A stretch of DNA of 51,610 nucleotides, taken from the IMG/VR virus record IMGVR_UViG_3300021142_001969, positions 1 to 51,610 of that record. One strand, written 5' to 3'. The DNA is from a virus. Taxonomy: Duplodnaviria; Caudoviricetes. Positions within the stretch are counted from its first letter, which is position 1, and every line of letters begins with the position of its first letter. A model generated the notes under the pieces. That model worked only from the letters and a program-made list of their open reading frames with translations, was not told where the DNA came from and made no database searches. This document shows positions 1 to 43,721 of this stretch, piece by piece. Made by a program: the position numbers and the translations under genes.

Positions 1-118
1 AACTAAGTGTTTTGACTGTATCACCGATATTAATGGTATCAATCCTTCCAAGCAAAAATAATCCTCGTAAGAGTATTAACGAGGATTCAATTAAAGAGCT
101 TGCTGATAGTATGCAAGT
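1..118. repeat. Terminal direct repeat, left copy (circular assembly overlap)
   Basis: 1-118 matches 51493-51610 except G18 vs A51510. Confidence 0.95.
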
Positions 119-1538
119 TAATGGATTGCTTCAACCTATAACCATTCGTCCTGATGCTGATGGATTCGAGATAGTAGCAGGAGAACGCAGATGGAGAGCA
201 GCTAAGTTGTTGAGATGGGAAACTATACCTGCAATTGTAAGGCACGTATCTGATGAGGATATGCTCGAGATTCAGGTATTAGAGAACTTACAGAGAGAGG
301 ATATGAGTCCATTGGATGAAGCATTAGCATTTCAAACCCTTCTGAAGAAAGAAAGCCTGGACTGGTTATCATCTAAGATTCACAAATCAAAGAAGTATGT
401 ACTGGATAGAATTAAGCTAAATGACTTATGTCTGGAGGCGAAGCTGTACCTTACTAAAGGCGTGTTGCCTTTAGGTCACGCAGTGATGCTATCAAAGATT
501 AAGGAAGAAGAACAGGAGAAAATACTTAAAGGCATAATCACAATTCCTTATAACGATAAAAGCGAAAAAGATATCAGTTTGAGTTACTGCTTTAAAACTT
601 TAAATGAACTGAAAAGCCTTATCAGTTCAACATTCTCTTCATTTTCAAACGCTCCTTTCAGTCTATCAAGTTCAGATTTAATAGATGGTGTTCCTTCTTG
701 CAACGAGTGCGATAAAAGAACCTGCAACCAGAATCTTTTATTTGGGGATATTACGAGTAAAGATGAGTGTACTGATGTATCCTGCTTCAAAAGCAAAATA
801 AAGGCTCATGTGGATGAAAAGATTCAGGAAGCTAAATACAAATATATTGGTGTGCAAAGTGGAGAATCTGATCCTTATGCAAGTTGTAATATTAAGGTTA
901 AAGGTCAGTCACTTCGATATGAAGAAAAACAGAAAGATGGTCTTATCCCGGTAGTTATTACTAAAGCTGATAACTGGAGACAAAAAGACCTTGGTAAAAC
1001 TGTTTGGGTTAAGATGCCTGAGAAAGAAGAAATTGAAAAGACTAAAGAAGAGAAATCTTCAAATAACAATCGGAACTGGAAGGAAGAACAAAAGGAGCTT
1101 TTCTATGCTGAAGTTGAATTGCTAAATAAAATATTACCATCAGTAGTTACTGGTATACCTAAAATTAATAGATCTGCTATACTTGATGACTTATTTGTTT
1201 CTCTTTTAAGTGAAATTGATTTATGTTATATAATGGTTTTTGCTCACTCTATGGGTATTGAAATATCTACAGAAGTTAATAATATTTATGACTATATAGA
1301 GAGTTTAACGTGGGGAGAAAAAGACGAATTGAAACCTGAGCTTATTAAAAGCATTTGGGGTAAATGTAACGCAGATAAGGATAGAGATTGTGTTCTTAAA
1401 GTTATGTCGAATTTATATTATATCGGTAAAACTATCGATCAAAGAGATTCTGAAGAAGAATATGAATTTGGAATATTGACATGGAAGGGTTACTCTGACT
1501 TAATTAATATTGACAAACTTATTAACCCTGAAGATTAG
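12..1538 (+). CDS. ParB/RepB/Spo0J-family protein; true start likely ATG 51459 across the circular junction
   Basis: NPRK, LADSM..NGLLQPI, IVAGERRWRAA, ENLQREDMSPLDEA ParB motifs; Cys cluster later; the frame continues upstream through the terminal repeat to MAKAKKTVEHK. Confidence 0.9.
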   Translation: MTVSPILMVSILPSKNNPRKSINEDSIKELADSMQVNGLLQPITIRPDADGFEIVAGERRWRAAKLLRWETIPAIVRHVSDEDMLEIQVLENLQREDMSPLDEALAFQTLLKKESLDWLSSKIHKSKKYVLDRIKLNDLCLEAKLYLTKGVLPLGHAVMLSKIKEEEQEKILKGIITIPYNDKSEKDISLSYCFKTLNELKSLISSTFSSFSNAPFSLSSSDLIDGVPSCNECDKRTCNQNLLFGDITSKDECTDVSCFKSKIKAHVDEKIQEAKYKYIGVQSGESDPYASCNIKVKGQSLRYEEKQKDGLIPVVITKADNWRQKDLGKTVWVKMPEKEEIEKTKEEKSSNNNRNWKEEQKELFYAEVELLNKILPSVVTGIPKINRSAILDDLFVSLLSEIDLCYIMVFAHSMGIEISTEVNNIYDYIESLTWGEKDELKPELIKSIWGKCNADKDRDCVLKVMSNLYYIGKTIDQRDSEEEYEFGILTWKGYSDLINIDKLINPED

Positions 1539-1539
1539 T

Positions 1540-3258
1540 ATGCTTGACATTCAACCAACACATAACGGCTTTGAGGTTTCCTTCCAGTACAAACCTTGGT
1601 TAGTGGCTGCTATTAAGCAGATATCTGGAGTAAGGTTTAACGGTGGCAAGAAGAACTGGTGGGTGCCTGAAACTTCTGGTCCTGCTCTACTGAATTGGGC
1701 TAAAGGCTTAAATGCTAACATAGCAACTACACAAAAAGTGGATATCGGAGAAATAGATCCTCTACCGGAATTGACTGTTGAAATTCCTATGAAGAGAACT
1801 ATGTTTCCATATCAGGCAAACGGTGTGGCTTATAATCTGATTCATGAGCGTGTAATTATTGGCGATGAACCTGGATTAGGTAAGACCGGGCAAAGTATCG
1901 CTACCATGCTAGGTGCCGGAGCTAAATGTATTCTGGTAATCTGCCCTGCTACACTAAAGGAAAACTGGAAGGTTGAGATTGAACAGAAGTGGACATGGGA
2001 TAAAGCAATGATCCTAAATGACAGAGTTAAATCTACATGGCCTCAATATTATAAGGTTGGGATTGTTAAGTGGTTCATCATTAATTATGAGAGTCTAAAA
2101 AAATTCTTTGTAACTAAAATTGATACTGTTTATGATAAAGATGGAAAGAAAATGCCGCTCCGCTTAAATCATATCCACTTTAATGACAATATCAGTCTGT
2201 TTGATGGTATCATCATTGATGAGATTCATAGGTGTAAGGATGGGAAAACACAAACCAGCAAGTTCTGTATGGGTGTTGCAAGAGGAAAGAAGTGGGTTCT
2301 TGGTCTTACTGGAACACCTGTTATGAATAAACCGAACGATCTTATTCCACAGCTTCACATTATCAATCATCTGCATTCACTTGGTGGATATAAGTATTTC
2401 AATGACCGGTATTGTGATGGGCCAAATGGTTCATCCAATCTGAAGGAGTTGAATTATTTCCTGAATAAGAATTGCTTTTACAGAAGATTGAAAAAAGAAG
2501 TACTGAAGGATTTGCCGGATAAAATAAGATCTGTTATTAAAGTGGATATTACCAACATGCCTGAGTACAAGAAGGCTGAAGACAATTTTATTGATTACTT
2601 ACGGGATAACCTGAAGAAGAGTGAAGGAGAAATAGATACAGCCCTAAGAGGACAAATAATGGTGCAGATTGGAATACTGAAGAAGATAGCAGCCAGAGGA
2701 AAGATTGAAGCGATAATTGAGGCAGTTGAAGAAGTGACGGATGCTGGAGAAAAGCTGGTATTGTTTGCGTGGCATAAGGAGATAGTGCATGAACTGAAGA
2801 AGTATTTTCCTAAAGCTGTATCTATTGTAGGAGATGATGATATGGAAACCCGTAACAGATCAGTATATGAGTTTCAGAAGTGTAAGAGTTGCGGAGTGAA
2901 GTTTGAGGATCATGACAATAGTCATGAATATGTAGGGAGTGATACTGGTCTGATTATATGTAACATTAAGAGTGGTGGTGTGGGAATTACCCTGACAGCA
3001 GCTTCCAGGGTGTACTTTATTGAGTTACCATGGAACAGTGCTCAGTCTGATCAGTGTGAAGACAGGTGTCACCGTATTAGTCAAAAGAATAATGTGCAGG
3101 CTGGTTTCTTCTTAGGTAGGAATACTATTGATGAATATATCTATGATATCATTGAGAAGAAGCGTGTAATTGCTAATGAGGTGACCGGGGATGAGAATAC
3201 AGTGGAGACTAGCGTAATTAACGAGTTTATCAACCAATTTACCAAGGATAAGTTTTAA
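1540..3258 (+). CDS. SNF2-family helicase with N-terminal HARP-like domain
   Basis: GDEPGLGKT, IIDEIH, LTGTP, QCEDRCHRISQ; ATG at 1540 follows the upstream stop. Confidence 0.9.
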   Translation: MLDIQPTHNGFEVSFQYKPWLVAAIKQISGVRFNGGKKNWWVPETSGPALLNWAKGLNANIATTQKVDIGEIDPLPELTVEIPMKRTMFPYQANGVAYNLIHERVIIGDEPGLGKTGQSIATMLGAGAKCILVICPATLKENWKVEIEQKWTWDKAMILNDRVKSTWPQYYKVGIVKWFIINYESLKKFFVTKIDTVYDKDGKKMPLRLNHIHFNDNISLFDGIIIDEIHRCKDGKTQTSKFCMGVARGKKWVLGLTGTPVMNKPNDLIPQLHIINHLHSLGGYKYFNDRYCDGPNGSSNLKELNYFLNKNCFYRRLKKEVLKDLPDKIRSVIKVDITNMPEYKKAEDNFIDYLRDNLKKSEGEIDTALRGQIMVQIGILKKIAARGKIEAIIEAVEEVTDAGEKLVLFAWHKEIVHELKKYFPKAVSIVGDDDMETRNRSVYEFQKCKSCGVKFEDHDNSHEYVGSDTGLIICNIKSGGVGITLTAASRVYFIELPWNSAQSDQCEDRCHRISQKNNVQAGFFLGRNTIDEYIYDIIEKKRVIANEVTGDENTVETSVINEFINQFTKDKF

Positions 3259-7090: not shown

Positions 7091-7471
7091 ATGTATAAGA
7101 AAGTCTTATTAAAAGATGAATTACCCCCTATTGGTGTTTATATTACAACTATTGATTCTAATAATAATCATGTTGTATATAAAATGAATGAAGATAAATC
7201 ATTCACCATGAAAGGTACTTACGAGAATAATAATTCACCAATCATATATTGGTTGAAGGAAGGCGGATATTATCTATTTAGTTATCATTTAGGTTGCAGA
7301 ATAGATGAAGGTTGGGGTAACATGGCATTAGTGTTTGCTAGTAATCAAGACGAAGCAAAAGAGATATTAATTAAAGAAAAGACTATAAGTAAAGAAACTG
7401 CAAGTATTGGGCTTGCTTTTGGGTGGAATAAAGATATAGTGCCTGATAATATCTATTGTTTAAATTTATGA
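7091..7471 (+). CDS. Hypothetical protein
   Basis: 126-aa ORF. Confidence 0.65.
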   Translation: MYKKVLLKDELPPIGVYITTIDSNNNHVVYKMNEDKSFTMKGTYENNNSPIIYWLKEGGYYLFSYHLGCRIDEGWGNMALVFASNQDEAKEILIKEKTISKETASIGLAFGWNKDIVPDNIYCLNL

Positions 7472-7566
7472 AATATATTAAATCAATAAGATGGTATCTG
7501 AAATGCTACGGTCTTCTGAAAGAAAAGAAGACAGTAAGAAGGTTTTTCAGGAAGATAATTAAATAA
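7468..7566 (+). CDS. Small basic 32-aa ORF (not in ORF track)
   Basis: ATGA overlap with the upstream stop; MKYIKSIRWYLKCYGLLKEKKTVRRFFRKIIK. Confidence 0.4.
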   Translation: MKYIKSIRWYLKCYGLLKEKKTVRRFFRKIIK

Positions 7567-7626
7567 ATATTTTTGAATTATAAATTAAGTTATGCAAAAA
7601 GAATACACATACAAAAAAAATAAACC

Positions 7627-8022
7627 ATGAACAGAGAAGAGTTAGAGAATAGAATTTTCAAAGAGCTTTGTTTAGTCAGAGGTGGATTATGGGGAAGCGC
7701 AAGGGTAGCTGCCGACATAGCAGAAGCCTACGCTGCTGAAAAGGTTAAGGAAGCAGAAGAGAGTAGATGGGTGAGGGTTGATAGCGGTATTTTACCAACT
7801 GACCATAATGGAAGACTATGTATATTAGAAGATGGAGGCTATTGTATCGCATTTTATACTAAGGGTGGAGATTATGATAGTACTATTATAAATGAAGACC
7901 AAGAGCCACAAGAAACATTTTTAAATGAAGGATGGTATGAATTATGTGAGCAAGAAGACGACTCTTATGGAGATGCTGCATTTAAAAGAAACGTTGTTAA
8001 ATATCAAACAATACAACAATAA
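7627..8022 (+). CDS. Hypothetical protein (DUF551-like character)
   Basis: RWVRVDSGILP motif. Confidence 0.6.
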   Translation: MNREELENRIFKELCLVRGGLWGSARVAADIAEAYAAEKVKEAEESRWVRVDSGILPTDHNGRLCILEDGGYCIAFYTKGGDYDSTIINEDQEPQETFLNEGWYELCEQEDDSYGDAAFKRNVVKYQTIQQ

Positions 8023-8704: not shown

Positions 8705-8743
8705 GTTCCAAATTTGGAACTTCGGAAAGAAGTTGTATATTTG
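8705..8743 (+). promoter_or_regulatory. Bacteroidota sigma-A promoter with overlapping 16-bp perfect palindrome
   Basis: TTTG(8713-16)-N19-TATATTTG(8736-43); GTTCCAAATTTGGAAC at 8705-8720. Confidence 0.8.
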
Positions 8744-8797
8744 CAGTATCAAATAACAAAACACAACCTCAAGTGTATAACATGGAGACCGAAAGTT

Positions 8798-9691
8798 ATG
8801 GAAAATATTTTAATTGAAACTTTAGCAGAAAAATTAGGTGGTAAACTTTGGATCAAAGAAGATAAGAAAAGAATCTATCTTGATTGCGGCTACAACACTA
8901 AGAAAATGAGTACTAAGACTTATGTGTATCAACGTGAAGACGGCACATTTGGAGTTAGTTGTTACATCGATTGTCCTTCTCAACCTTATGCCTGGATTCA
9001 ATCTCAGCAAGCAGAAGTAATTGAAGGTGTAGAAAGAAGAATCGAAGATGTATTAGCAGATACAGTCTATTTAATTACAGACGATTCGACTGGTAAGGTT
9101 ATTAATGATAATGGCAATCCATGTGAATTAAATGACCTATATGATAGTGCTTATTTTTTAAGTAAATCCGCTGCTGAAAAGTACATATCGAAGGAATTAG
9201 GTAAAGGATATTCTATTAAGGAAATGAATAGAGAAGAGTTCAATACAGAAGTTGACAGACTTAATGAAATTGAAAGAAATTTACCACTTAGCGTTAAGAT
9301 TGAAAGAGGAGATTCTATTTCATTTCACAAAGGAAATTTTGAAGAAGTAAAGCTTAAATTAGAAGCTGATGGTATAATGGATTTGCTTACTGTGAATCTT
9401 TATAATGACTGGTCTGGTTCATTTAAAAAGAAAGGTGAAAATGATAGGTTAGCTATTGACGTAATTAATGATAAAATCAGTAAGGATAAAATCATCAAAG
9501 AAGAGGCTCTTATTATAAAGAGTGCCGGCAAAACATCCGTTGACTTAAAAAATGGTAATAGAGTTTCTCATAAGGTGTTTGGAGAAGGTACTATTATTTC
9601 AGATGATAATAAAATCATTGAAATAAAGTTTGATTCTATAGATGAAGTAAAGAAATTGATTAAGGCTTACGCTAAACTTGAAAAACTTTAA
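8798..9691 (+). CDS. Protein with C-terminal PcrA/UvrD-type Tudor-like domain
   Basis: GNRVSHKVFGEGTI..IEIKF..KKLIKAYAKLEKL; ATG 8798 lies downstream of the promoter. Confidence 0.7.
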   Translation: MENILIETLAEKLGGKLWIKEDKKRIYLDCGYNTKKMSTKTYVYQREDGTFGVSCYIDCPSQPYAWIQSQQAEVIEGVERRIEDVLADTVYLITDDSTGKVINDNGNPCELNDLYDSAYFLSKSAAEKYISKELGKGYSIKEMNREEFNTEVDRLNEIERNLPLSVKIERGDSISFHKGNFEEVKLKLEADGIMDLLTVNLYNDWSGSFKKKGENDRLAIDVINDKISKDKIIKEEALIIKSAGKTSVDLKNGNRVSHKVFGEGTIISDDNKIIEIKFDSIDEVKKLIKAYAKLEKL

Positions 9692-9694
9692 GCA

Positions 9695-9991
9695 ATGCCA
9701 ATTAAATCACTTATGCTTCGATTTGATAAATTTCTTCATGCTACTGAAAAAGCCTACCTGATAAGAGTAGGCTCAACAGAGCATTGGATACCAAAGAAAC
9801 TTTGTCGTAATTTTATTACAAACAAAAAATTAGGAGGGAATGTATCAATTCCAGCTTTCTTATATGAAAGAATAACAGGTGAGAGTATTGAAGATGCGCC
9901 TATATCTGATGCCGACTTTATAGTAGAAAAACATATACCTGAGCGTAAAGAACCTATTAAAATCGAAGCCGATGCAACCCTTATTAAGTAA
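9695..9991 (+). CDS. Hypothetical protein
   Basis: TEKAYLI..WIPKK motif; overlaps the helicase start. Confidence 0.7.
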   Translation: MPIKSLMLRFDKFLHATEKAYLIRVGSTEHWIPKKLCRNFITNKKLGGNVSIPAFLYERITGESIEDAPISDADFIVEKHIPERKEPIKIEADATLIK

Positions 9992-11186
9992 TCAGTTGTC
10001 AAAAATTGACAAGTTTAAAAACTTGAAGGTAGGTGCTGATTTCGGAGAGCCTGGCACCGGTAAGACCAGAAGCACAATGGAATTGGTAAAGGCTACAGAA
10101 TCTACACTATGCGTTTGGATTGCTCCTTACAGAACCATTCACCCACCCGAAGGTATGAATGGCATTCAACAGGAGGTTGGAAAGTGGGGAGGTTTAGGTA
10201 TTGAAACGATATTTATTGCTCCTGAAACGATCAGTATGAGCGATAGGCAGTACCTACAGTTATTTAATAAAATTCGTACAGCATTGTGTACATTCATAGT
10301 GGTAGACGAAAGCCTGAAAATTAAGAATAGCGAAGCCAAAAGAACCAACAGGATTATTGATTTAGGAAAGATGGCAGAATACAAGTTCATCCTGAATGGG
10401 ACTGCTCTGAGTAAGTCATTACTGGATATTTGGGCACAAATGCAGTTTCTATCTCCTCTTATACTTAGGATGTCACAGGCTGAATATAAGAATACTATTT
10501 GTGAATATACTACGGTAAAGAAGAGAATCGGTTACAAATGGTATTCAAAGGAGTTTATAACAGGATACCATAATGTGGATTACCTTTTCTCTATCATCGA
10601 GCCTTATGTGTTTGATTGCAAACTGGATATTGAAGCGAAGAAGCAGTACTTTGATTATAGTTACATTCTGAGCGAAGAACATAAAGAAGAGTATCGGCGA
10701 TTGAAAGAGAAGTATTTGGATGATGAAACTTTGCAGTGGAAGAATAATAACATATTTTTGGAGTTAACGCAGAAAATGCAACATTTGTATTGCTGTACTG
10801 AGGATAAGTTCGCTGTTGTAGATGAGATTTTAAAGAATTGTGACAGGAAGAAAGTTCTCATATATCGGAAGTTTATCGAAAGCGATATTGAACTGAAGAA
10901 GCGTTACCCTGATATTCCTATAATGAGTATTCAGAGCCATAGTTATAGTTTGAACTTGCAGGAGTACGATACGATTATAGAATGGGATAAGACCTGGGAC
11001 TATGCCTTGGTTGACCAGCGGGAGCATAGAATTTACAGGACTGGTCAGGAGCATACCTGTAAGTTCTATAAGTTGACAGGTAGTGCAAATCTGGAAGGAT
11101 TAATGAATACTAACAATGAAACTAAAGGTAAATTATTACAATATTTTAAAGAAAAGGGTTATAAAGAAATAATGAAAAAGTTATGA
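9972..11186 (+). CDS. Compact SNF2-like helicase/ATPase
   Basis: GEPGTGKT, VVDES, LNGT, QREHRIYRTGQ. Confidence 0.85.
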   Translation: MQPLLSNQLSKIDKFKNLKVGADFGEPGTGKTRSTMELVKATESTLCVWIAPYRTIHPPEGMNGIQQEVGKWGGLGIETIFIAPETISMSDRQYLQLFNKIRTALCTFIVVDESLKIKNSEAKRTNRIIDLGKMAEYKFILNGTALSKSLLDIWAQMQFLSPLILRMSQAEYKNTICEYTTVKKRIGYKWYSKEFITGYHNVDYLFSIIEPYVFDCKLDIEAKKQYFDYSYILSEEHKEEYRRLKEKYLDDETLQWKNNNIFLELTQKMQHLYCCTEDKFAVVDEILKNCDRKKVLIYRKFIESDIELKKRYPDIPIMSIQSHSYSLNLQEYDTIIEWDKTWDYALVDQREHRIYRTGQEHTCKFYKLTGSANLEGLMNTNNETKGKLLQYFKEKGYKEIMKKL

Positions 11187-11734
11187 GTACAAAATTTAAA
11201 AGTCCGGTTTATAATGTCATTGCCGTACCAATTGACAAAATAGAAGCAAATGATTACAATCCTAATCATGTGGCTAAAAGAGAAATGGATTTGCTGTATC
11301 AGAGTATTAAATGTGATGGCTACACAATGCCTATTGTCTGCTTCTATGATAAGGACAGAGATAAGTATGTGATTGTTGACGGCTTCCATCGCTACACCAT
11401 TATGCTTAAATACAAGAATATTTATGAGCGTGAAAATGGTATGCTTCCTGTTTCTGTTATTGAGAAGGATATTAGCGATCGTATGGCATCTACTATTCGA
11501 CACAATCGTGCAAGAGGTAAACATGAGGTTGAGTTACAGGCATCTTTAGTAGGAATGCTAAAAGCCGGATGGGATGAAATTAAAATCATGAAAGAACTCG
11601 GCATGACACTTGAAGAAGTTCAAAGGCTTATTGGATTGAAAGGAATCGCTTCCGAAATTGCTGGTGTTCCTTATTCAATTGAACGACAAATTATTGAAGC
11701 TGGAGAAGATATTCCTGATGAAGATTTCAATTAA
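11183..11734 (+). CDS. IbrB/YbdM-like ParB/Srx-domain protein
   Basis: ANDYNPNHVA, DGYTMPIV, VDGFHRY, STIRHNRARGKH. Confidence 0.9.
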   Translation: MSTKFKSPVYNVIAVPIDKIEANDYNPNHVAKREMDLLYQSIKCDGYTMPIVCFYDKDRDKYVIVDGFHRYTIMLKYKNIYERENGMLPVSVIEKDISDRMASTIRHNRARGKHEVELQASLVGMLKAGWDEIKIMKELGMTLEEVQRLIGLKGIASEIAGVPYSIERQIIEAGEDIPDEDFN

Positions 11735-11740
11735 TTAACT

Positions 11741-12880
11741 ATGGCAAGAACAGTAGTAAGAGGTGTAATTGATGTTTTAGAGGCTGCAAAAAAACGAATC
11801 AATTTCATTTTTGATAATTACGATAATATTTCTCTGTCTTTTTCCGGAGGTAAGGACAGCACTGCTCTTTTCCATTTGATTAATACTGAAGCAATCAAAA
11901 GAGATAGAAAGTTCATGCTTTACTTTCAGGATCAGGAAGCAGAATATCAAGGAACTATCGATTTTGTTGAATGGGCAATGTCGCAGCCAAATGTTATTCC
12001 ATTATGGTATCAAGTCCCAATATTTATGACAAATGCCGCCAGTCAGCAACAATTATTCTTATGGGCATGGGGTGAAGGTGAAGAATGGGTAAGGGAAAAA
12101 CACCCGATTGCAATTCATAAGTTGGATAAAAAATATCCTAAGCGTTTCCATAAGTTCAATTTGTGGGTAGGTCAAAACCTTAAGCAGTTACAGGGTAAGA
12201 GTATTTCTATTATCGGATTGCGAGCCGAAGAAAGTCCGGATAGAAGATTTGTAATGTTTGGTGAAAACAGTGAATTATTTTGGATAAGGAGAAAAAACAT
12301 AGCAGACAAACCTCATAGAGCCTACCCTATTATTGACTGGTCTTATACTGATGTCTGGAAGTATTTAATTGAAAACAATCTCAAATACAATCGGGTTTAT
12401 GATAAAATGTATATGCTTGGTGGAAATTTGAGATATTTCCGAGTATCGAATTTGGTGCATGAAAAAGCTTTCCGGTGTCTTACCGACCTTCAGGAGCTTG
12501 AACCGGAAACATACGATAAATTAGAAAGGAGATTGAAAGGTGTGCATACTGCCGCTATTTATGGTAAAGAGGATTTAATGTATTCTATTAAGTCTTTGCC
12601 AGATAATTTTAATACTTGGAAAGAGTATAAGGACTTTCTTTTAAACTCAATTCATCCCGACTTAAAGCGAATATTTGAATATCAATGGAGTAGATTTGCA
12701 GATACTGACGATGTGGGAGCGAATAAATATATGGTGAAAAGGATATTACTTTGCGACTGGGAAGGGAGTATTACCTGGAATAGAGATTATGATTTTAACT
12801 ATACTAAAGACCAGATTCTACATAAGAATAAACTGAAAAGAGAGGATGAGATTATAAAAAAATGGACTCAATTATTATAA
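11741..12880 (+). CDS. IbrA/YbdN-like PAPS-reductase-fold (PP-loop) protein
   Basis: SFSGGKDS, DQEAEY, IGLRAEES, YPIIDW, RVS. Confidence 0.9.
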   Translation: MARTVVRGVIDVLEAAKKRINFIFDNYDNISLSFSGGKDSTALFHLINTEAIKRDRKFMLYFQDQEAEYQGTIDFVEWAMSQPNVIPLWYQVPIFMTNAASQQQLFLWAWGEGEEWVREKHPIAIHKLDKKYPKRFHKFNLWVGQNLKQLQGKSISIIGLRAEESPDRRFVMFGENSELFWIRRKNIADKPHRAYPIIDWSYTDVWKYLIENNLKYNRVYDKMYMLGGNLRYFRVSNLVHEKAFRCLTDLQELEPETYDKLERRLKGVHTAAIYGKEDLMYSIKSLPDNFNTWKEYKDFLLNSIHPDLKRIFEYQWSRFADTDDVGANKYMVKRILLCDWEGSITWNRDYDFNYTKDQILHKNKLKREDEIIKKWTQLL

Positions 12881-12889
12881 AATAAAAGT

Positions 12890-13219
12890 ATGGACAAATT
12901 TGTATTAGCAGAAAACCCAATGCGAGAAGGAGCAGATTTATTTATCTGCCATCTTTTAAACCCAATTGCAATATTTCAGGCACACGAAGGACATATTCAG
13001 TTTAAAGATAAGATATGCAATCACTTTGAATTCGTAAATAGTGATGGAGTATTAGAGCTTTGGACGCTTTCAACTCACCATTTCTTTACCACTAATTTTA
13101 TAGAAGAACCTGAAAAACAGATACCTAAAGTAATGGATAAAGCATGGAGATGGTATAGATCTTACTTAGAATGGGAGGATAAAAACATAGATTTAGACGA
13201 TTATGCAGCAGAAAATTAA
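12890..13219 (+). CDS. Hypothetical protein
   Basis: 109-aa ORF in cassette. Confidence 0.7.
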   Translation: MDKFVLAENPMREGADLFICHLLNPIAIFQAHEGHIQFKDKICNHFEFVNSDGVLELWTLSTHHFFTTNFIEEPEKQIPKVMDKAWRWYRSYLEWEDKNIDLDDYAAEN

Positions 13220-13391
13220 CGATGAACAACTACGGGAATGGTTTTCTGAACGCCCAGCGCTAAGATTAACAAAGTTAGAAGAAGAAGCTAATATGCCTGC
13301 AAGAACCCTACAAAGATTTATTGATGGTAGAAGTATGCCCGATAAACACTACACTTCACTAATATTAATACTCAAAAAATACGGTTTATAA
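13203..13391 (+). CDS. Small HTH DNA-binding protein
   Basis: LTKLEEEANMPARTLQRFIDG.R HTH pattern. Confidence 0.7.
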   Translation: MQQKINDEQLREWFSERPALRLTKLEEEANMPARTLQRFIDGRSMPDKHYTSLILILKKYGL

Positions 13392-13436
13392 ACATATAGA
13401 GTTTTTATAATATGTTCTTGTTTTTTTATTACACTT

Positions 13437-13465
13437 AACCCTTTGTTGTATTGCAGAGGGTTTTT
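13437..13465 (+). terminator. Intrinsic terminator closing the cassette
   Basis: AACCCTTTG..CAGAGGGTT hairpin plus T tract. Confidence 0.7.
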
Positions 13466-13801: not shown

Positions 13802-13825
13802 AAATACATATTGTATGTATTTTTG
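13802..13825 (+). promoter_or_regulatory. Palindromic operator/promoter motif, copy 1
   Basis: AAATACATA-TTG-TATGTATTT overlapping TATTTTTG. Confidence 0.8.
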
Positions 13826-13846: not shown

Positions 13847-15307
13847 ATGTCAAAACAAATAGGAATAAGAATTATTAAGACCGAGCCAATTAATTGGCGT
13901 GAATTGCAATTTATTCAGCAGGATGATTTTAAAGAAATACCAGAAGAAGCACGTCATAAACTCAAAGCTTCATTAGTCGGGAATAACTTCATACAGCCTT
14001 TTTACGTGTGGCAGTCTGATGATGGCATTACTTATTGTCTAGATGGAAAGCATCGAACCATGTTTCTGGAAGAGCTGATAAATGAGGGTTATGATGTACC
14101 TTATGAGTTACCAGCAACATTTGTAAGTTGTACTGATAAAAAAGAAGCAGCTCGTTTAGTTCTGGTTTTTAGTTCTGCATATGCGAAAATAACACAGACA
14201 GGACTTAGATCATTTATTGAATTAAATGATCTAAATTGGTCTGAAATAAAGGGAGAGATTGATTTACCTGAGTTTAGTGTTGAGAGGTTTGAACAGAAGT
14301 TTGATTTCTTTGGTGTACAGGATTCATCAAATGACGAGGATCCTGAATTTGGAAAAGAAGATATTGAGATTGTAGTTAAGCCTGGAGATGTGTTTCAGTT
14401 AGGCAGTCATCGTTTATTCTGTGGAAGTTTTAAGGATGATGAAGGAGTGGAAGAGCTGATGGAGAACCAGAAGGCAAGAATTGTTTTTTGTGATCCACCT
14501 TATAATCTGCCAGCTAATTTCTTTACCAATAAGGATGAGAAGAAGCATAAGGACTTTGCGGAAGGTGCCGGTGAAATGACTGATCAGGAGTTTTCCGAGT
14601 TTCTTGCATTGATAATGACCAAATCAAAAGAGAACACAGTTCCTGGAGCAATCCACTATATATGCATGGATTTTCGCCATTGCTGGCACATGACAGATGC
14701 TGCCCGGGTTGTTTATGGTAATCCTGAACCAAAGCAAGTATGTGTCTGGAATAAGGACATGATGGCGAATGGTAGTTTCTACCGGGCCAAGCAAGAACTT
14801 GTATTCGTTTTCCAGAATGATAATGCAATGCATTTGTGGAATAATGATTTGTTAGATGAAGGTGGTTTTTATAAAAATGAGAATGAGTTAGTTTTTATCT
14901 TTAAGAACAGTGATGGAGCAAAGCACTTATCACACCTTGAATTAAAAAACAGGATTCGTTCTAATGTCTGGAATTATCCTTCTGCTATTTCTACTGCTAA
15001 TCCTGACCGTTACGAGCTTAAAAACCATCCTACACCTAAGCCAGTGGTAATGGTAGCTGATGCCATCCTGGATACAACGAATGAAGGAGATATTGTAATT
15101 GATTGGTTTTTGGGTTCTGGTACCACATTGATAGCTGCAGAAAAAACAAACCGTATTTGTCATGCAACTGAGATTGACCCCGGATATGTTCAACATATCA
15201 TTTGCCGGTATTACAGATATTGTGAGAAAACTGGAAGAGAGTTTAATTTTAAACATGTTAATGGTTCATTATCAATAAATCAAATTTTACAAACAGAAAC
15301 TGTATAG
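13847..15307 (+). CDS. ParB-like domain fused to N6/N4 DNA methyltransferase (beta class)
   Basis: N-terminal LDGKHR; DPPY, HPTPKP, DWFLGSGTT. Confidence 0.9.
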   Translation: MSKQIGIRIIKTEPINWRELQFIQQDDFKEIPEEARHKLKASLVGNNFIQPFYVWQSDDGITYCLDGKHRTMFLEELINEGYDVPYELPATFVSCTDKKEAARLVLVFSSAYAKITQTGLRSFIELNDLNWSEIKGEIDLPEFSVERFEQKFDFFGVQDSSNDEDPEFGKEDIEIVVKPGDVFQLGSHRLFCGSFKDDEGVEELMENQKARIVFCDPPYNLPANFFTNKDEKKHKDFAEGAGEMTDQEFSEFLALIMTKSKENTVPGAIHYICMDFRHCWHMTDAARVVYGNPEPKQVCVWNKDMMANGSFYRAKQELVFVFQNDNAMHLWNNDLLDEGGFYKNENELVFIFKNSDGAKHLSHLELKNRIRSNVWNYPSAISTANPDRYELKNHPTPKPVVMVADAILDTTNEGDIVIDWFLGSGTTLIAAEKTNRICHATEIDPGYVQHIICRYYRYCEKTGREFNFKHVNGSLSINQILQTETV

Positions 15308-17278: not shown

Positions 17279-17302
17279 AAATACATATTGTATGTATTTT
17301 TG
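17279..17302 (+). promoter_or_regulatory. Palindromic operator/promoter motif, copy 2
   Basis: AAATACATA-TTG-TATGTATTTTTG, identical to copy 1. Confidence 0.8.
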
Positions 17303-17369
17303 TATCCTACAATTTAATAAAATAAAATTACTACATTGAAAGCACTTCAAACACTTACTTTAAATTAAT

Positions 17370-17388
17370 AATACATACAGTATGTATT
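17370..17388. promoter_or_regulatory. Palindromic operator motif, copy 3
   Basis: AATACATA-CAG-TATGTATT. Confidence 0.75.
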
Positions 17389-17413
17389 TTATTGATAATT
17401 GAATATAAAAGAA

Positions 17414-35306: not shown

Positions 35307-35330
35307 AAATACATACTATATGTATTTTTG
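35307..35330 (+). promoter_or_regulatory. Palindromic operator/promoter motif, copy 4
   Basis: AAATACATA-CTA-TATGTATTTTTG, 4 nt before ATG 35335. Confidence 0.8.
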
Positions 35331-38791: not shown

Positions 38792-39457
38792 ATGAAAAAA
38801 TTACTACTTATCATTTTCCTGATGTCGGGAATATGTTCTTTCGCGCAACATACAATCGAAGTTAAGCACCAGTATTACACCTTAGAATTTGACACAGTTC
38901 TAAAGTCTCCATTAGTAAGTTGGTATATCCAGACTACAGCACATGCAACTTCTACAAATAAAATTGACCGTAAGACTGTTGCTGCTTTCCATCAGGATCC
39001 GTTAATAAATTCAAAGTATCAGGTAGCCAATAATAAGGAATACCTTAGAAACGGCAAGTTCGATAAAGGACACCTATCTCCATATAGTGCCTTTTACTTT
39101 GATTTAACCGCAGCTAAAGAAAGTATGTTCTATACCAATACTGCACCTCAGTACAGCTTCTTTAACGAGCATCCACATGAAAGGTTGGAACAGTACGTTT
39201 TAAAGACATTAGCCCCGGAGCATGATAGTATTTATGTTTATACCGGTTGTTTGTACGGTAATAATAAAATGAAGAATTGCCCAATTCCTGATTACTACTG
39301 GAAGGTAATAGTATATGATAATGGAAGTAAAGTAGAGCAATGGTTAGAGCCTAATGAAATTACCGATAACTCTGATTATACAAGATACTCAGTAAGTATG
39401 GAAATTTTAAAGAAAAAAATATTTGAGTATTACCCCAAACTAAAACTACCGTTTTGA
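38792..39457 (+). CDS. Secreted DNA/RNA non-specific endonuclease (NucA/EndA beta-beta-alpha-Me family)
   Basis: Signal peptide ending SFA|Q; FDKGHL, SMFYTNTAPQ..FN, IPDYYWKVI. Confidence 0.9.
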   Translation: MKKLLLIIFLMSGICSFAQHTIEVKHQYYTLEFDTVLKSPLVSWYIQTTAHATSTNKIDRKTVAAFHQDPLINSKYQVANNKEYLRNGKFDKGHLSPYSAFYFDLTAAKESMFYTNTAPQYSFFNEHPHERLEQYVLKTLAPEHDSIYVYTGCLYGNNKMKNCPIPDYYWKVIVYDNGSKVEQWLEPNEITDNSDYTRYSVSMEILKKKIFEYYPKLKLPF

Positions 39458-40497: not shown

Positions 40498-41679
40498 CTA
40501 AAACTTATTCCCTACAGCTCTTAATCTCTGATGTATTCTTTCTTTTTCACCAACTGCATAGTGAGCCATGGTTACAACCGTTGTAGTATGTCCAGCCATG
40601 CTAGCTGCTGCCTGTAAATCTAATATTGCTGCAGTCTCATCCAGATTCAAATGTTTAAGGCTGTAGAAGTCTGCTGTAATGCCTAATGGCTTTTTAACTA
40701 ACCGGTACCATCTTTTAGTTATTTGAATTGGGGTAATAGGTAGTGCTCCTGGTTTTAAATCGTAACTAAATATATAATCTCCATCTTTTGAATTTTGGAC
40801 AGAATTAGTCCAAAAGGGTAAAGCCACATCTTTTATAACCTTCATTACTTCTTTCCTGCTCCTACCCTTCTTAACAACTATTTTAAACCGTTGGTTCTTT
40901 AAATCAACATCTTCTTTTTTAATAAGTAGTAGTTCGCTAATTCTTGCGCCTGAATGGAAGAAGATTTGTAAGAAGTTCCAAAATGTAGGATATTTACTTT
41001 CCACATGATCGGTAACCATCTTTCGTTCTTTCTCGGTTAGAGTAGTCCTTATTTTCTTCAGCACTTCTTTTTTAGCTATCCCAATAATCGGATTAAACTC
41101 CATCGCCTCCAGTTCTACCAGCTCTTTAAAAATGATAGACATATACTTCCGGTAATTATTGAAAGTATTATTACTCCAATTGTTCTTACCTCCTAAGTAG
41201 TCAAAGATGGCGCGAATATGTTTGCGCTTGATTTCTCCTATTTGGACCATATCATAGCGAAGTTTTTTAGCTCCAGTTTCGAAGTGCCGGAACATTCCGA
41301 CAATCCCCTGCCTGGTCTTAGGTTCTAAAGTCAGCTTATCGAGAGCTTTGGCCATCGCTTCCAAAAGATAAATCCGGGGGTTAATTTCTTCCTCGCTTGC
41401 AATTATTCCAGTTATAGGGTTATAGCCAGATAAGAGTAAGGAAAGCTCATTATCGATTAATATTTGGGTATCGCTCCTTCTATCTTCCCTGGTCTTGGAG
41501 CTGTTCATCCCTTTAATGATCTTCAGCTTAGGCGCAATCTTACCATTTTTTAAAATTGTTGGGTCGTAGAACCGGTATTGAATATACCAGTCTTTGCTTG
41601 TGGTAGCTCTTAATGTTTTCCAATTTGTCGGGTTAACCTTCAATTCCGAGCAATAACATCCATTAGGTAGTTGTATCAT
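40498..41679 (-). CDS. int: Tyrosine integrase
   Basis: SGARISELL, YSLKH, MAGH, HY; adjacent to a tRNA-derived att core. Confidence 0.93.
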   Translation of the reverse strand: MIQLPNGCYCSELKVNPTNWKTLRATTSKDWYIQYRFYDPTILKNGKIAPKLKIIKGMNSSKTREDRRSDTQILIDNELSLLLSGYNPITGIIASEEEINPRIYLLEAMAKALDKLTLEPKTRQGIVGMFRHFETGAKKLRYDMVQIGEIKRKHIRAIFDYLGGKNNWSNNTFNNYRKYMSIIFKELVELEAMEFNPIIGIAKKEVLKKIRTTLTEKERKMVTDHVESKYPTFWNFLQIFFHSGARISELLLIKKEDVDLKNQRFKIVVKKGRSRKEVMKVIKDVALPFWTNSVQNSKDGDYIFSYDLKPGALPITPIQITKRWYRLVKKPLGITADFYSLKHLNLDETAAILDLQAAASMAGHTTTVVTMAHYAVGEKERIHQRLRAVGNKF

Positions 41680-41690
41680 ACATTCAATAT

Positions 41691-41712
41691 TTTGTTAACG
41701 ATTGTGTTAACT
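41691..41712. promoter_or_regulatory. Integrase arm-type site pair (left)
   Basis: TGTTAACGATTGTGTTAAC, near-identical to the right-hand pair. Confidence 0.65.
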
Positions 41713-41745
41713 GTTGATAAAATCTACCGTAAAATTGAGAGGGGT

Positions 41746-41780
41746 AAAAACGCCTGAAAGTCAATGCCAACAGGCGTTTT
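41746..41780 (-). terminator. Terminator between attP and int
   Basis: AAAACGCCTG/CAGGCGTTTT inverted repeat with T tract on the minus strand. Confidence 0.7.
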
Positions 41781-41786
41781 CGTAAT

Positions 41787-41830
41787 GTGAACCGGATTGG
41801 ATTCGAACCAATGACCTATAGCTTAGAAGG
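41787..41830 (-). other. attP core = 3' half of tRNA-Arg(TCT)
   Basis: Minus strand CCTTCTAAGCTATAGGTCATTGGTTCGAATCCAATCCGGTTCAC: anticodon loop, T-arm, acceptor 3' strand; no 5' half. Confidence 0.88.
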
Positions 41831-41869
41831 GAGCTTTTAGCCCTTGTTTCTCAATATTTACGATAGAGA

Positions 41870-42187
41870 TTATCTCTGTTTTGTCGATTTTGTTGTTTTC
41901 GTGTTAACGATTTTGTTAACCGGCTTATCCCTGAATATATTCTTTTCTAAACCCATAATCCAGTTAGCGTTAACGTTATATATTTTACAGATTGCTTCTA
42001 TATGCGCAATCTTAAATCTTTGTTTGCCGGTTGTTACCTGATGAATATGTTGTTGATGTAATGTACAGTGACCATGTTCAGTTACATACTCGCAGAACTG
42101 CTTTTTCGTTTCAATTTTACCAGATGCCAATAGTTTGTCTATAAGCTCGAGCATTCTTTGATCTGATATGGCTAATTGTAAGGTCAT
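41870..42187 (-). CDS. XRE-like HTH protein
   Basis: HIEAICKIYNVNANWIMG. Confidence 0.75.
   Translation of the reverse strand: MTLQLAISDQRMLELIDKLLASGKIETKKQFCEYVTEHGHCTLHQQHIHQVTTGKQRFKIAHIEAICKIYNVNANWIMGLEKNIFRDKPVNKIVNTKTTKSTKQR
41901..41921. promoter_or_regulatory. Integrase arm-type site pair (right)
   Basis: TGTTAACGATTTTGTTAAC. Confidence 0.65.
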
Positions 42188-42705
42188 TAGAAATTATTAT
42201 CTATAGCTTTTAGCATTGCAGCTTTGAACCTTGAAATTATATCCTTGCAACTTTCATCAATTCTTTGGATAAACTTACTATTACTTCTAGGGTGTTTAAT
42301 AATATTTTCTGCCGGCATATCAATTTTTCCGTGAGCAGAACTAGCTGGTATTGATACATAAATATTGTATAATTGTATTCTGTATTTATTATCCTTTACG
42401 GTTATGTTTATTACATAGTATATATCTTGCTCTAATGGACCAGTCATAAAATTGCCAACAGATTTTTGCGTGTATCCCTTACCCATAATAATACCACCAT
42501 CTTTATCATCAATCTGTAATACATCTTTTCCGCTATTAAAAGTATTTACAAACCAGGCTTTTGCTTTCATAAAAGCTTCAGCTTTATTTAAAGGTGTGCT
42601 GTCTATGGATTCATAGAATACTTTCCCTTCTTTCAGTGGAAGTTCTGTTTGTCCAAATCCATTAACCGAAATTGCGATTAATGCAACTAATAATATGTGT
42701 TTCAT
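42187..42705 (-). CDS. Exported DUF4468-like (TBP-like fold) protein
   Basis: Signal peptide ending GFG|Q; KAWFVNTFNSGKDVLQIDDKDGGIIMGKG, VKDNKYR. Confidence 0.8.
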   Translation of the reverse strand: MKHILLVALIAISVNGFGQTELPLKEGKVFYESIDSTPLNKAEAFMKAKAWFVNTFNSGKDVLQIDDKDGGIIMGKGYTQKSVGNFMTGPLEQDIYYVINITVKDNKYRIQLYNIYVSIPASSAHGKIDMPAENIIKHPRSNSKFIQRIDESCKDIISRFKAAMLKAIDNNF

Positions 42706-42715
42706 AATTTTTGTA

Positions 42716-42919
42716 TTAAATTTCTGAATCTACTGGCTTATCCTGCGTGAAATAAATAATGGCAATTGCAAAAGGCCACCCAAAGAGTACAGATAATAGA
42801 AGCACAAATGAAAAGCTTATATTCTTTTTTGTTTTCTCTATTCTATCAGCTAAAATTATTCCTGTAATCAGGTTATGTGATAGAATTGCAATGAAAATAG
42901 GACTTGATAAAAATTCCAT
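42716..42919 (-). CDS. Small 2-TM membrane protein
   Basis: Two hydrophobic helices; co-oriented with the repressor. Confidence 0.6.
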   Translation of the reverse strand: MEFLSSPIFIAILSHNLITGIILADRIEKTKKNISFSFVLLLSVLFGWPFAIAIIYFTQDKPVDSEI

Positions 42920-42942
42920 ATTTATTGATTTAGTTTTTAAAA

Positions 42943-43599
42943 TTAAGTTCTCTTGTTTAACCAGCCATGAATTAGCCAGATATTCTTTATCTTATCCTTT
43001 GGTAATTCAAAATCATCATATAGCTCATTCTCCGACTTTAATAAGAAGTGTGTTTGCTCCTTCTTGCTTCTTCTGATATATTTCAGATATCGTCTATTAT
43101 CAATACACACTATACCATAAATCTGACCATATTCCAAGTGACTCATCCAGTCCTCAATCTTAGTGGCAAATACTATACTTCCACTTTTTATAGTTGGCTC
43201 CATGCTGTCGCCATAAGCTCGGAACGAAATAGTTCCTCTAAATTCGGGTATGTCCATTGTATAGGCTGATTGGATCATTTGGGTATCATCGTAAAACTCA
43301 ATAGCATTACCAGCAGAAAAGTCAGCATCTATAAATTGTATCTCATTTTTATTACTACCGCTTAATTTTTTACTATGTAACTTCTCGTGGAAAGTTTGAG
43401 TATTTACATTTGTTTCAATATTCAAATCTTCATTAAACATTTGTTTCCATTTCAAGTAAAACTCAGTTTTTGGGTTTCTATCCCCTCTTTCATATAGCCC
43501 ATATAACTGGCTTGAAATGCCTAATTTTATTGACATTTCAGACTTTGATAACCCTAATAAAGCCCTTTTATTTGCTATATTCACACTTACTATACTCAT
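42943..43599 (-). CDS. cI: CI-like repressor (XRE HTH plus S24 autopeptidase)
   Basis: N-terminal HTH, SAG cleavage site, GDSMEP, LKY. Confidence 0.92.
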   Translation of the reverse strand: MSIVSVNIANKRALLGLSKSEMSIKLGISSQLYGLYERGDRNPKTEFYLKWKQMFNEDLNIETNVNTQTFHEKLHSKKLSGSNKNEIQFIDADFSAGNAIEFYDDTQMIQSAYTMDIPEFRGTISFRAYGDSMEPTIKSGSIVFATKIEDWMSHLEYGQIYGIVCIDNRRYLKYIRRSKKEQTHFLLKSENELYDDFELPKDKIKNIWLIHGWLNKRT

Positions 43600-43639
43600 T
43601 ATAAAAACATATCAAGTTATCCACATTTTAAAAATAAAT

Positions 43640-43674
43640 GAAACATTTGTTTTGCTGTACGAAACATTTGTTTA
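43640..43674. promoter_or_regulatory. Tandem putative repressor operators
   Basis: GAAACATTTGTTT at 43640 and 43661 (quasi-palindrome GAAACA-TT-TGTTTC). Confidence 0.7.
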
Positions 43675-43680
43675 TATTTG
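43651..43680 (+). promoter_or_regulatory. Early lytic promoter
   Basis: TTTG-N18-TATATTTG. Confidence 0.7.
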
Positions 43681-43690
43681 CAATGTGTTA

Positions 43691-43721
43691 CAAAGTTACA
43701 ACAAAATATGAGAATAGCAAA
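43691..43721 (-). promoter_or_regulatory. Repressor promoter
   Basis: Minus strand TTTG-N19-TAACTTTG. Confidence 0.7.

Follow-up and report, generated by a model that had tools for sequence, protein, structure and literature searches.

The window analysed here is a 51.6-kb virus record from IMG/VR (IMGVR_UViG_3300021142_001969; estimated completeness 97%), and the element under study is a cassette at positions 8705-13465, which consists of a palindrome-bearing promoter, seven genes on the plus strand and a terminator. Three of these genes encode a minimal SNF2-family ATPase (here SNF2s), an IbrB-like protein with a ParB/Srx domain and an IbrA-like PP-loop enzyme. The IbrA/IbrB pair is known and unexplained; here, as far as sequence comparison goes, it is coupled to a minimal SNF2 in a mobile accessory module.

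Organization of the cassette

The features of the cassette are as follows; the remaining genes are designated g1, g2, g6 and g7, and lengths are in nucleotides (nt), base pairs (bp) or amino acids (aa).

8705-8720: 16-bp perfect palindrome GTTCCAAATTTGGAAC, overlapping the -33 element; candidate operator
8713-8743, plus strand: promoter-like site of Bacteroidetes type, TTTG-N19-TATATTTG, some 86 nt before the ATG of g1
8798-9691, plus strand: g1, 297 aa, in which a conserved N-domain of some 90 aa is followed by a variable stretch and, at the C-terminus, a probable PcrA/UvrD-like Tudor domain
9695-9991, plus strand: g2, 98 aa, a small beta-barrel whose C-terminal tail (..E-K/H-H-x-P..) is conserved; its gene overlaps the SNF2 start
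9972-11186, plus strand: SNF2s, 404 aa, minimal SNF2-family ATPase
11183-11734, plus strand: IbrB-like ParB/Srx-domain protein, 183 aa, with N-x-YNPN and D66-G67-x-H69-R70 motifs
11741-12880, plus strand: IbrA-like PP-loop enzyme, 379 aa, of the PAPS-reductase/CysD/FMN-adenylyltransferase fold, with S35-G-G-K-D39 and a helical DUF3440
12890-13219, plus strand: g6, 109 aa, phrog_18499 family (5.4e-6)
13203-13391, plus strand: g7, 62 aa, possible small regulator with a helix-turn-helix (HTH)-like pattern by eye only
13437-13462, plus strand: intrinsic-terminator-like hairpin of 10 pairs, then TTTTT

The original prediction, made from the sequence alone, had described seven tightly packed genes between a promoter with a perfect palindrome and a terminator, and most of this architecture was borne out. 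The genes overlap or are separated by at most 9 nt: g1 ends at 9691 and g2 starts at 9695, IbrB and IbrA are 6 nt apart and IbrA and g6 9 nt apart, and there are overlaps of 20 nt between g2 and SNF2s, 4 nt between SNF2s and IbrB and 17 nt between g6 and g7. The terminator hairpin has a fold z-score of -2.98, with one of 200 shuffles folding as well, and GTTCCAAATTTGGAAC occurs in a single exact copy in the window, the sole other match needing 3 mismatches. The part that did not stand is the consensus promoter as such. A sigma-70 consensus promoter was rejected, as its match (9/12) is ordinary and such sites are not enriched in the window (41 found versus 45 expected). The pattern that fits instead is TTTG-N19-TAnnTTTG, which we take to be the Bacteroidetes promoter consensus and which is matched at 8713-8743; it occurs 9 times in the window versus 2.7 expected.

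In 9 of the 21 distinct loci that begin with g1, the g1 homologue has the same pattern no more than 100 nt ahead of it, and several of these nine carry their own, differing palindrome inside the promoter, which would fit a role of such palindromes as operators. Different palindromes are found in the equivalent promoters of related modules in loci L039, L058, L060 and L033. Over 57 upstream regions a perfect palindrome of at least 12 bp was present in 9, as compared with 6.8% of random 270-nt windows.

Two other readings of the gene boundaries were rejected. A TTG start for gene 1 at 8714 lies inside the promoter, and the N-termini of homologues align to the ATG at 8798. A programmed frameshift fusing g2 to SNF2s was considered, given that the g2 tail is conserved and the two genes overlap; it was dropped, as overlaps of this size (4-32 nt) resemble the usual coupling of a start codon to a stop codon.

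Conservation and protein content of the module

IbrA served as bait to collect 46 IMG/VR loci and 15 bacterial-genome loci, whose open reading frames (ORFs) were labelled with the window proteins and with hidden Markov models (HMMs) built from clusters. In all 46 viral loci IbrB was followed by IbrA, and in 42 of them SNF2s lay directly upstream of the pair, the exceptions being L021, L037, L047 and L048. The other genes were less constant: g2 was present in 37/46, a g1-family gene in 20/46, an XRE-type HTH gene within 2.5 kb downstream in 19/46 (with at least 700 nt of downstream sequence available in 39 of the 46) and a phrog_18499-like gene in 5/46. Among the 15 bacterial-genome loci found, 11 had enough upstream sequence, and 10 of these held SNF2s. 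The strongest result came from the reciprocal test, in which SNF2s served as bait for 23 loci. IbrA was found downstream in all 23 (22 as full ORFs, and in L068 as a partial copy where the contig ends), and g2 in 17. In 17 of the 23 the enzyme was of another IbrA subtype (27-42% identity) and the order was IbrA-IbrB; the linkage to SNF2s thus survives a swap of both IbrA subtype and gene order. All cassette genes but g7 have counterparts elsewhere. The genes that had been proposed to form one cassette therefore do co-occur in other genomes and, judging by their recurrence, constitute a conserved module and no chance grouping.

Named phages carry the module as well. In phage 23T the order is g2, an extra ORF, SNF2s, IbrB, IbrA, an XRE regulator and a phrog_18499 gene, and phage FCL-2 carries the SNF2s-IbrB-IbrA block. 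The parts of the FCL-2 report cited here describe no integrase or repressor genes, and lysogeny as not detected (PMC4541368); since FCL-2 carries the module without detected lysogeny, it should be useful in lytic growth. Within the same loci, conservation was 77-94% for IbrB and 74-86% for IbrA, versus 42-55% for SNF2s and 37-51% for g2, a contrast which may reflect a universal substrate for IbrA and IbrB and lineage-specific partners for the rest. In Streptococcus phage CHPC1230 (S. thermophilus; L004:6305-6790) IbrB is 60% identical to that of the window and IbrA only 31%. An identity of 60% across phyla is, by comparison of the sequences, unusually strong conservation for a phage protein. 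Another arrangement was seen in three viral contigs of 73-78 kb (L086-L088), where SNF2s is followed by a gap of 1-1.5 kb and then by IbrA and IbrB; L087 and L088 have a second IbrA paralogue after these, and the L086 locus ends too early to tell.

The identities proposed earlier for the three core proteins proved solid. SNF2s matches SNF2-rel_dom (PF00176) with 31.4 bits (cut-off 24.9), phrog_62 at 3.5e-50 and, over both lobes, PDB entry 1z63 at 7e-12; its Helicase_C match, at 17 bits, is below threshold. An alignment of 45 sequences shows the invariant residues G28 and K31 of Walker A, D112-E113-S114 of motif II, K118-N119, N142-G143, and R353 and R356, so that SNF2s is a bare core of about 400 aa in which every ATPase motif is kept. 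In a predicted three-chain complex of IbrA, IbrB and SNF2s, run with alignments, SNF2s scored 0.02 versus a mark of 0.32, which counts neither way for binding.

IbrB matches phrog_2159 at 4.5e-84 and Pfam ParB_N at 22.5 bits, below the cut-off of 26.3. The N-x-YNPN box is invariant in its alignment, and its C-terminal segment looks HTH-like by eye. Further matches of IbrB are to the ParB portion at the N-terminus of the ParB-methyltransferase fusions of phrog_498 (3.3e-11) and, weakly, to SerK (7.8e-4); a sequence search of the PDB gave no match.

IbrA matches phrog_2302 over residues 1-378 (1e-121), PAPS_reduct (PF01507) with 65.4 bits (cut-off 22.5) and DUF3440 (PF11922) with 38.6 bits (cut-off 25). 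Its structural model is confident (predicted local distance difference test score, pLDDT, 91.6), and the nearest folds of its N-domain, by VIA Z score, are the PAPS domain of FAD synthase (15.9), APS reductase (15.8), CysD (14.5) and CysH (14.1); TilS, GMP synthase and tRNA thiolases are further structural neighbours. By Foldseek the model matches 6vpu at 2.1e-7, and the fold matches span about residues 4-253. Relatives were drawn from a library of representatives at 50% identity, which gave 119 diverse sequences; in another homologue search all 120 matches listed were at least 81% identical and hence of little diversity. Invariant in the 119 relatives are R19, S35-G-G-K-D39, E164, R168, Y220 and R234, and there is no cysteine among the invariant or 90%-conserved columns. 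Against curated cut-offs, IbrA scored 33.7 (cut-off 154) for CysH NF002537, 32.2 (165.1) for CysH TIGR00434, 30.5 (195) for CysD NF003587 and 26.2 (290.4) for DndC TIGR03183. Owing to the lack of a conserved cysteine and to these scores, far below the cut-offs, a role of IbrA as an auxiliary gene of sulfur assimilation, or sulfur chemistry altogether, seems unlikely, in agreement with the original prediction. To our knowledge, the members of the PP-loop superfamily that transfer sulfur all need cysteines or Fe-S clusters, and in those without cysteines AMP is passed to an oxygen; from this rule and the absence of a conserved cysteine we infer that IbrA would catalyse adenylyl transfer. Two unusual relatives were noted, a natural ParB_N-IbrA fusion (protein P0130) and a protein with an intein between its PAPS_reduct and DUF3440 parts (P0229).

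The accessory proteins are less clear-cut. The window g1 was a singleton in the first clustering; it matches the HMM of its family at 8.6e-48 through the 90-residue N-domain, whose invariants are W18, R25, Y27, G31, TKKM, C59, Q62 and W66. It had been named a Tudor protein: the homologue in L014 passes the cut-off for the Tudor domain PF21196 (25.2 bits versus 23.9), and the window g1 scores below it (21.1 bits). The g1 C-terminus matches NCBIfam UvrD and PcrA at 4.5e-6 to 1.7e-4, and a Tudor-like C-terminus is present in 7 of 18 aligned g1 members; a search of the ESM Atlas gave no usable match for g1. For g2, aligned in 36 sequences and modelled with a pLDDT of 87.4, Foldseek found nothing in the PDB at E <= 0.001; a wide VIA search gave weak matches to SH3/Sm/Hfq-like small barrels only (Z up to 3.7), and the ESM Atlas gave unnamed viral clusters only. 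The sixth gene, listed originally as unknown, can be placed in phrog_18499 (hhalign probability 96.3%, E 1.5e-9; the phage 23T homologue matches the same family at 3.4e-68). The HTH claimed for the last gene found no confirmation. The pattern L-x3-A-x5-T-L-x-R-F-x-x-G-x3-P in g7 resembles an HTH by eye only; g7 is without a match in Pfam, PHROG, NCBIfam or PADLOC profiles, and comparison by hhalign with the XRE regulators that follow IbrA in other loci gave a probability of 3% (E 0.014).

The genes found beside or within the operon in relatives provide hints of a substrate. Between IbrB and IbrA, small genes resembling beta-class DNA methyltransferases are present in L051, L055, L058 and L060-L064. 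The L058 insert (7465-8019) scores 31.7 bits for PF01555 (cut-off 26.7) and the L055 insert (7366-7998) is below threshold; a profile scan of the L051 insert gave no methylase match, and this insert and the unscanned ones of L060-L064 are called methyltransferase-like from DPPW/DPPC and FxGxG motifs seen by eye. The same position holds a GNAT-like gene in L046 (7633-8019), L047 and L049 and a glycosyltransferase-like (glucosyltransferase-like) gene in L037 (7417-8004) and L063, all by weak matches. A DNA methyltransferase adjoins IbrA-IbrB in Rhizobium phage L338C, and in Microbacterium phage Hendrix an IbrA-like gene comes after genes for a glucosyltransferase, a methyltransferase and an N-acyltransferase. 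The pair lies directly upstream of terminase in Riemerella phage PJN03 and mycobacteriophage Pipefish. DNA-directed partners, as had been supposed, thus recur in the form of a ParB-type protein, an SNF2 translocase and methyltransferases in the operons of relatives; taken together, these contexts favour DNA as the target, short of proof. In L077 (6206-7581) and L080 a 249-aa protein is encoded between SNF2s and IbrA, and in L077 a methyltransferase-like gene comes next.

Phage setting and accessory status

The window phage is, judging by its genes, a temperate phage of Flavobacterium type. Its DNA is similar to that of Flavobacterium columnare phages, with about 74% identity to FCL-2-type Ficleduovirus over 10480-12887, and it also encodes RecT, portal and terminase. 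Features outside the cassette that bear on its setting are the following.

3-1538: backbone ParB, 511 aa, with ParB_N and HTH_ParB; open at the window start
1510-3258: backbone full-length SNF2 (SNF2L), 582 aa
8246-8689: ASCH protein, directly before the cassette
40498-41679, minus strand: integrase (36.3 bits)
42943-43599, minus strand: HTH-S24 repressor, lysogeny module
13802-13825, 17279-17302 and 35307-35330 (plus strand) and 17366-17389 (minus strand): 24-nt element AAATACATATTGTATGTATTTTTG

The region of early and replication genes continues across the ends of the record and also includes a DnaC-like loader and a DUF1064 resolvase. Downstream of the cassette there is a 77-aa ORF, then a ParB-N6/N4 methyltransferase (13847-15307) and then the packaging genes. 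The phage has two neighbouring ParB-SNF2 pairs, the second of which was missed in the original prediction; the pair at 3-3258 belongs to the backbone, and its SNF2L is kept in relatives that lack the cassette. The element AAATACATATTGTATGTATTTTTG, with two exact copies and two with 2-3 mismatches in the window versus none expected, has copies upstream of the ParB-methyltransferase and portal genes and may be a late promoter or a regulator site. The lysogeny module (40498-43721, minus strand) encodes the integrase, a DUF4468 protein and the HTH-S24 repressor, and contains back-to-back Bacteroidetes-type promoter motifs at 43651-43680 (plus) and 43691-43721 (minus). A DNA/RNA non-specific endonuclease gene (Endonuclease_NS, 115 bits) lies at 38792-39457, after the tail and lysis region.

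Relatives of the phage backbone were fetched with the flanking ASCH and ParB-methyltransferase (ParB-MTase) proteins. These loci share SNF2L, ASCH, ParB-MTase, o77b, o147 and TerL, and are without g1, g2, SNF2s, IbrB and IbrA. In five whole records of such relatives, two of them at least 93% complete, neither IbrA nor IbrB was detected by a search which does find IbrA in the window record. In L095, L102 and L103 ASCH and ParB-MTase are 1.4 kb apart, and this interval instead contains a HicA toxin (53 bits) and a HicB-like gene (L102:8157-8741, L095:6969-7553), and in L097 (6863-7824) a Panacea-domain antitoxin (75.6 bits) and a partner of no recognised family lie upstream of ParB-MTase. As backbone relatives are without IbrA and IbrB, and some carry toxin-antitoxin genes at this place, the cassette can be regarded as accessory cargo and its insertion site, by the same comparison, as a hotspot of accessory genes. 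The moron architecture originally proposed is thereby corroborated: with its own promoter-like site and terminator, the cassette is to all appearances a self-contained, moron-like accessory unit.

Possible functions and related systems

Our leading interpretation, held tentatively and at somewhat short of an even chance, is that the module performs an ATP-driven, sulfur-independent covalent modification of DNA, which would serve the phage as counter-defence or as epigenetic marking. IbrB, with its ParB/Srx NTP-binding domain and probable HTH, would bind DNA and pair with IbrA, whose PP-loop would move AMP from ATP onto a target oxygen. Precedents for such a transfer among the structural neighbours are CysD and FMN adenylyltransferase, for which the acceptor is sulfate or phosphate; in TilS and GMP synthase it is a base carbonyl; the product of IbrA would be an adenylyl mark or a position activated for substitution. 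SNF2s would translocate on double-stranded DNA, so that IbrA and IbrB act along the genome, and g2 may be its accessory subunit. The Tudor domain of g1 might tether the machine, possibly to RNA polymerase, and the promoter palindrome would be the operator for a regulator encoded in the cassette. Each step of this scheme is an inference; what was observed is the gene content, linkage, accessory status, intact motifs and lack of conserved cysteines. A bolder proposal, which we regard as rather unlikely, is that IbrA/IbrB (YbdN/YbdM in Escherichia coli K-12) form the catalytic core of an unrecognised class of sulfur-free DNA modification, in which the PP-loop enzyme, controlled by the ParB/Srx NTPase, adenylylates DNA or activates it by adenylation for a later substitution, and which in Bacteroidota phages has become a processive machine driven by its own minimal SNF2 and tethered by Tudor to transcribing RNA polymerase, marking the genome during transcription, blunting restriction and altering expression. 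A co-transcriptional mark of this kind would explain the old description of IbrAB as a prophage gene activator.

Several points weigh against a DNA-modifying function. According to annotation strings and to the part of PMC4541368 that cites Sandt and Hill, IbrAB activates prophage-borne eib genes in E. coli; this is the only genetic phenotype on record, and it points to transcription, not modification. The PcrA/UvrD-type Tudor domain, as described in the passages cited from PMC5397179 and PMC8318588, binds RNA polymerase. An IbrAB pair without an annotated SNF2 occurs in phages of S. thermophilus, Chlorobiaceae, Rhizobium and mycobacteria, so IbrAB function does not inherently depend on the translocase. 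In whole-model searches, which were filled by the N-domain, no structural match was obtained for the DUF3440 half of IbrA, and most of the methyltransferase-, GNAT- and glycosyltransferase-like inserts do not reach family thresholds. In addition, the locus scans, being based on peptide patterns from the bait, reach no further than fairly close relatives, and the counts given above are of loci rather than independent lineages, several being near-identical contigs.

The main rival, to which we would assign a modest share of the probability, is a machine for transcriptional co-activation or anti-silencing, in which IbrB sits on DNA, the g1 Tudor domain recruits RNA polymerase, SNF2s acts as a RapA-like factor or remodeller that clears or recycles polymerase or nucleoid proteins, and IbrA modifies a protein or RNA, with phage or prophage expression raised as a result. 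The RNA-polymerase-binding type of the g1-family Tudor domain, overlooked in the original prediction, may keep a transcription-linked reading alive. The frequent position of IbrAB just upstream of terminase and late genes, as in the window, is in line with it, as are the weak matches of the backbone SNF2L (1510-3258) to RapA (5.5e-6) and of SNF2s, far below cut-off, to an Snf2 family that regulates pilus expression. Nevertheless, backbone relatives keep the ParB-MTase/terminase/portal layout without the module, which is therefore not needed for late transcription in phages of this type; the Tudor-like C-terminus is confined to a minority of g1 members, and g1 itself is missing from more than half of the IbrA-bait loci; and an activator has no obvious need of an invariant PP-loop catalytic centre. 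Less probable is a scenario in which IbrA and IbrB act on a small molecule or nucleotide (for example an immune signal made or destroyed, or an activated donor) or AMPylate a host protein, with the SNF2 and DNA-binding parts regulating or localising them. Such a role would suit the nearest folds of IbrA (FAD synthase, CysD and the APS/PAPS reductases), the small-molecule kinases found among ParB/Srx domains and the weak SerK match of IbrB, a protein-modifying QueC-like PP-loop protein among the structural neighbours (9nto, Z 8.3) and the gene context in phage Hendrix; it is at odds with the strict linkage to a double-stranded DNA translocase (42/46 and 23/23 loci), the constant pairing with a ParB-type DNA-binding protein and the DNA methyltransferases embedded in or adjoining the operon.

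We consider it improbable that the cassette is a prophage defence or superinfection-exclusion system, which would act on incoming foreign DNA rather than guard that of the phage itself. The toxin-antitoxin modules in the corresponding stretch of relatives, the temperate nature of the window phage (integrase and S24-HTH repressor), the many loci in bacterial genomes or proviruses and the cassette's own promoter and terminator would all agree with defence; against it stand the presence of the block in FCL-2, the absence of any recognised nuclease or other effector among the seven genes, and a PADLOC scan of the cassette with no model match beyond generic SNF2 and PAPS-reductase domains. The PHROG labels 'DNA helicase' and 'ParB-like partition protein', and the position of the cassette at the end of the replication region, might suggest that the genes for SNF2 and the ParB-like protein serve routine replication or partition of the phage, with IbrA as an unrelated passenger. 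This is very improbable, as the backbone has its own ParB and 582-aa SNF2, which persist in relatives without the cassette, and SNF2s always travels with IbrAB. Most improbable of all is that IbrA is a CysH-like auxiliary metabolic gene of sulfate assimilation or a phosphorothioation enzyme of the DndC/SspD type. Its PAPS_reduct domain and fold, the PHROG category 'auxiliary metabolic gene' and the partial matches to PADLOC models of BrxP (4.5e-9), DndC (7e-8) and SspD (1.4e-3) point that way; the cysteine-free alignment and the low scores for CysH, CysD and DndC point the other way, and neither cysteine desulfurase nor DndD/E nor SspB/C was found among the seven cassette genes and the 30-odd other window ORFs scanned.

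The question has some breadth, since IbrA/IbrB-type pairs are common, with 1655 clusters at 50% identity in the representative library (E <= 0.001), and an IbrA-like gene occurs in 223 phage records. Pipelines for phage annotation class IbrA under sulfur as an 'auxiliary metabolic gene', a label against which the family-wide lack of conserved cysteines argues. The Bacteroidota module supplies IbrAB with defined partners (a translocase, a Tudor protein and embedded methyltransferases), and natural pairs of phages with and without the cassette, together with the cultivable FCL-2, make the function of IbrAB directly testable. If the module does modify DNA, it would represent a new chemistry for phage counter-defence, with relevance to phage therapy in aquaculture, for which Flavobacterium phages are candidates.

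Known systems include some in which a ParB-superfamily protein accompanies a PAPS-reductase-fold PP-loop enzyme. DndC-, SspD- and BrxP-type enzymes possess conserved cysteines for Fe-S cluster or persulfide chemistry, and CysH has a catalytic cysteine at its C-terminus; IbrA shares the fold of the nucleotide-binding domain with CysH and CysD, is without conserved cysteines or Fe-S ligands, and has a C-terminal DUF3440 in place of the DndC/BrxP extensions. The pairing itself appears to be common to IbrB/IbrA and DndB/DndC: in the sections cited from PMC12839542, DndB/DndC and SspD/BrxP are described as such combinations acting on DNA, and the cysteine motifs of DndC and BrxP are mentioned. The same source describes the Dpd system, in which a ParB-like ATPase powers a DNA-modifying enzyme and SNF2-type helicases are present; it was the sole paper found to join PAPS reductase, ParB, phage and SNF2, and the portions cited deal with BREX, Dnd, Ssp and Dpd rather than with an IbrAB-SNF2 module. 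The match of SNF2s to models of the SNF2-like DpdE is weak (best 2e-12). In contrast to Dpd (DpdA/DpdB/DpdC and DpdE), the cassette has no transglycosylase or preQ0 genes, its catalytic partner is a PP-loop enzyme, and the IbrAB-SNF2 module is phage-borne and, as proposed, a modification-only cassette. The SNF2 ATPase core is further shared with DISARM DrmD, Zorya ZorD and RapA; SNF2s differs from these in its size of about 400 aa, without nuclease or extra domains, the partner genes of those systems are absent, and it scores far under the equivalog cut-offs for DrmD (32.5 versus 950) and ZorD (27.8 versus 1500). With the fusions of a ParB domain to a DNA methyltransferase (phrog_498; 13847-15307 in the window) the module appears to have in common the combination of a ParB-type domain with a DNA-modifying catalytic unit, as suggested by the match of IbrB to the N-terminus of phrog_498 and by the ParB_N-IbrA fusion P0130; IbrA is, by contrast, an ATP pyrophosphatase rather than an S-adenosylmethionine-dependent methyltransferase, and is usually a separate polypeptide.

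The closest relatives of the core are IbrA/IbrB of the E. coli ECOR-9 prophage element and their chromosomal paralogues YbdN/YbdM of K-12, in which a PAPS_reduct-DUF3440 enzyme is likewise encoded beside a ParB-like protein; DUF3440 was also found in an E. coli control genome, and annotations of the Flavobacterium phages 23T and FCV-1 include the pair. In the literature found on IbrA/IbrB, DUF3440 and ybdN/ybdM there were annotation-level mentions and no tested biochemical function. The part of PMC9068703 cited here lists YbdN as 'PAPS reductase/DUF3440' and YbdM as a 'ParB-like nuclease domain' protein, and describes the ybdNM genes as repressed by YbdO/CitR, with no function assigned. Compared with this E. 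coli pair, the module of Bacteroidota phages adds a minimal SNF2 ATPase, g2 and g1, and often an XRE regulator and a phrog_18499 gene.

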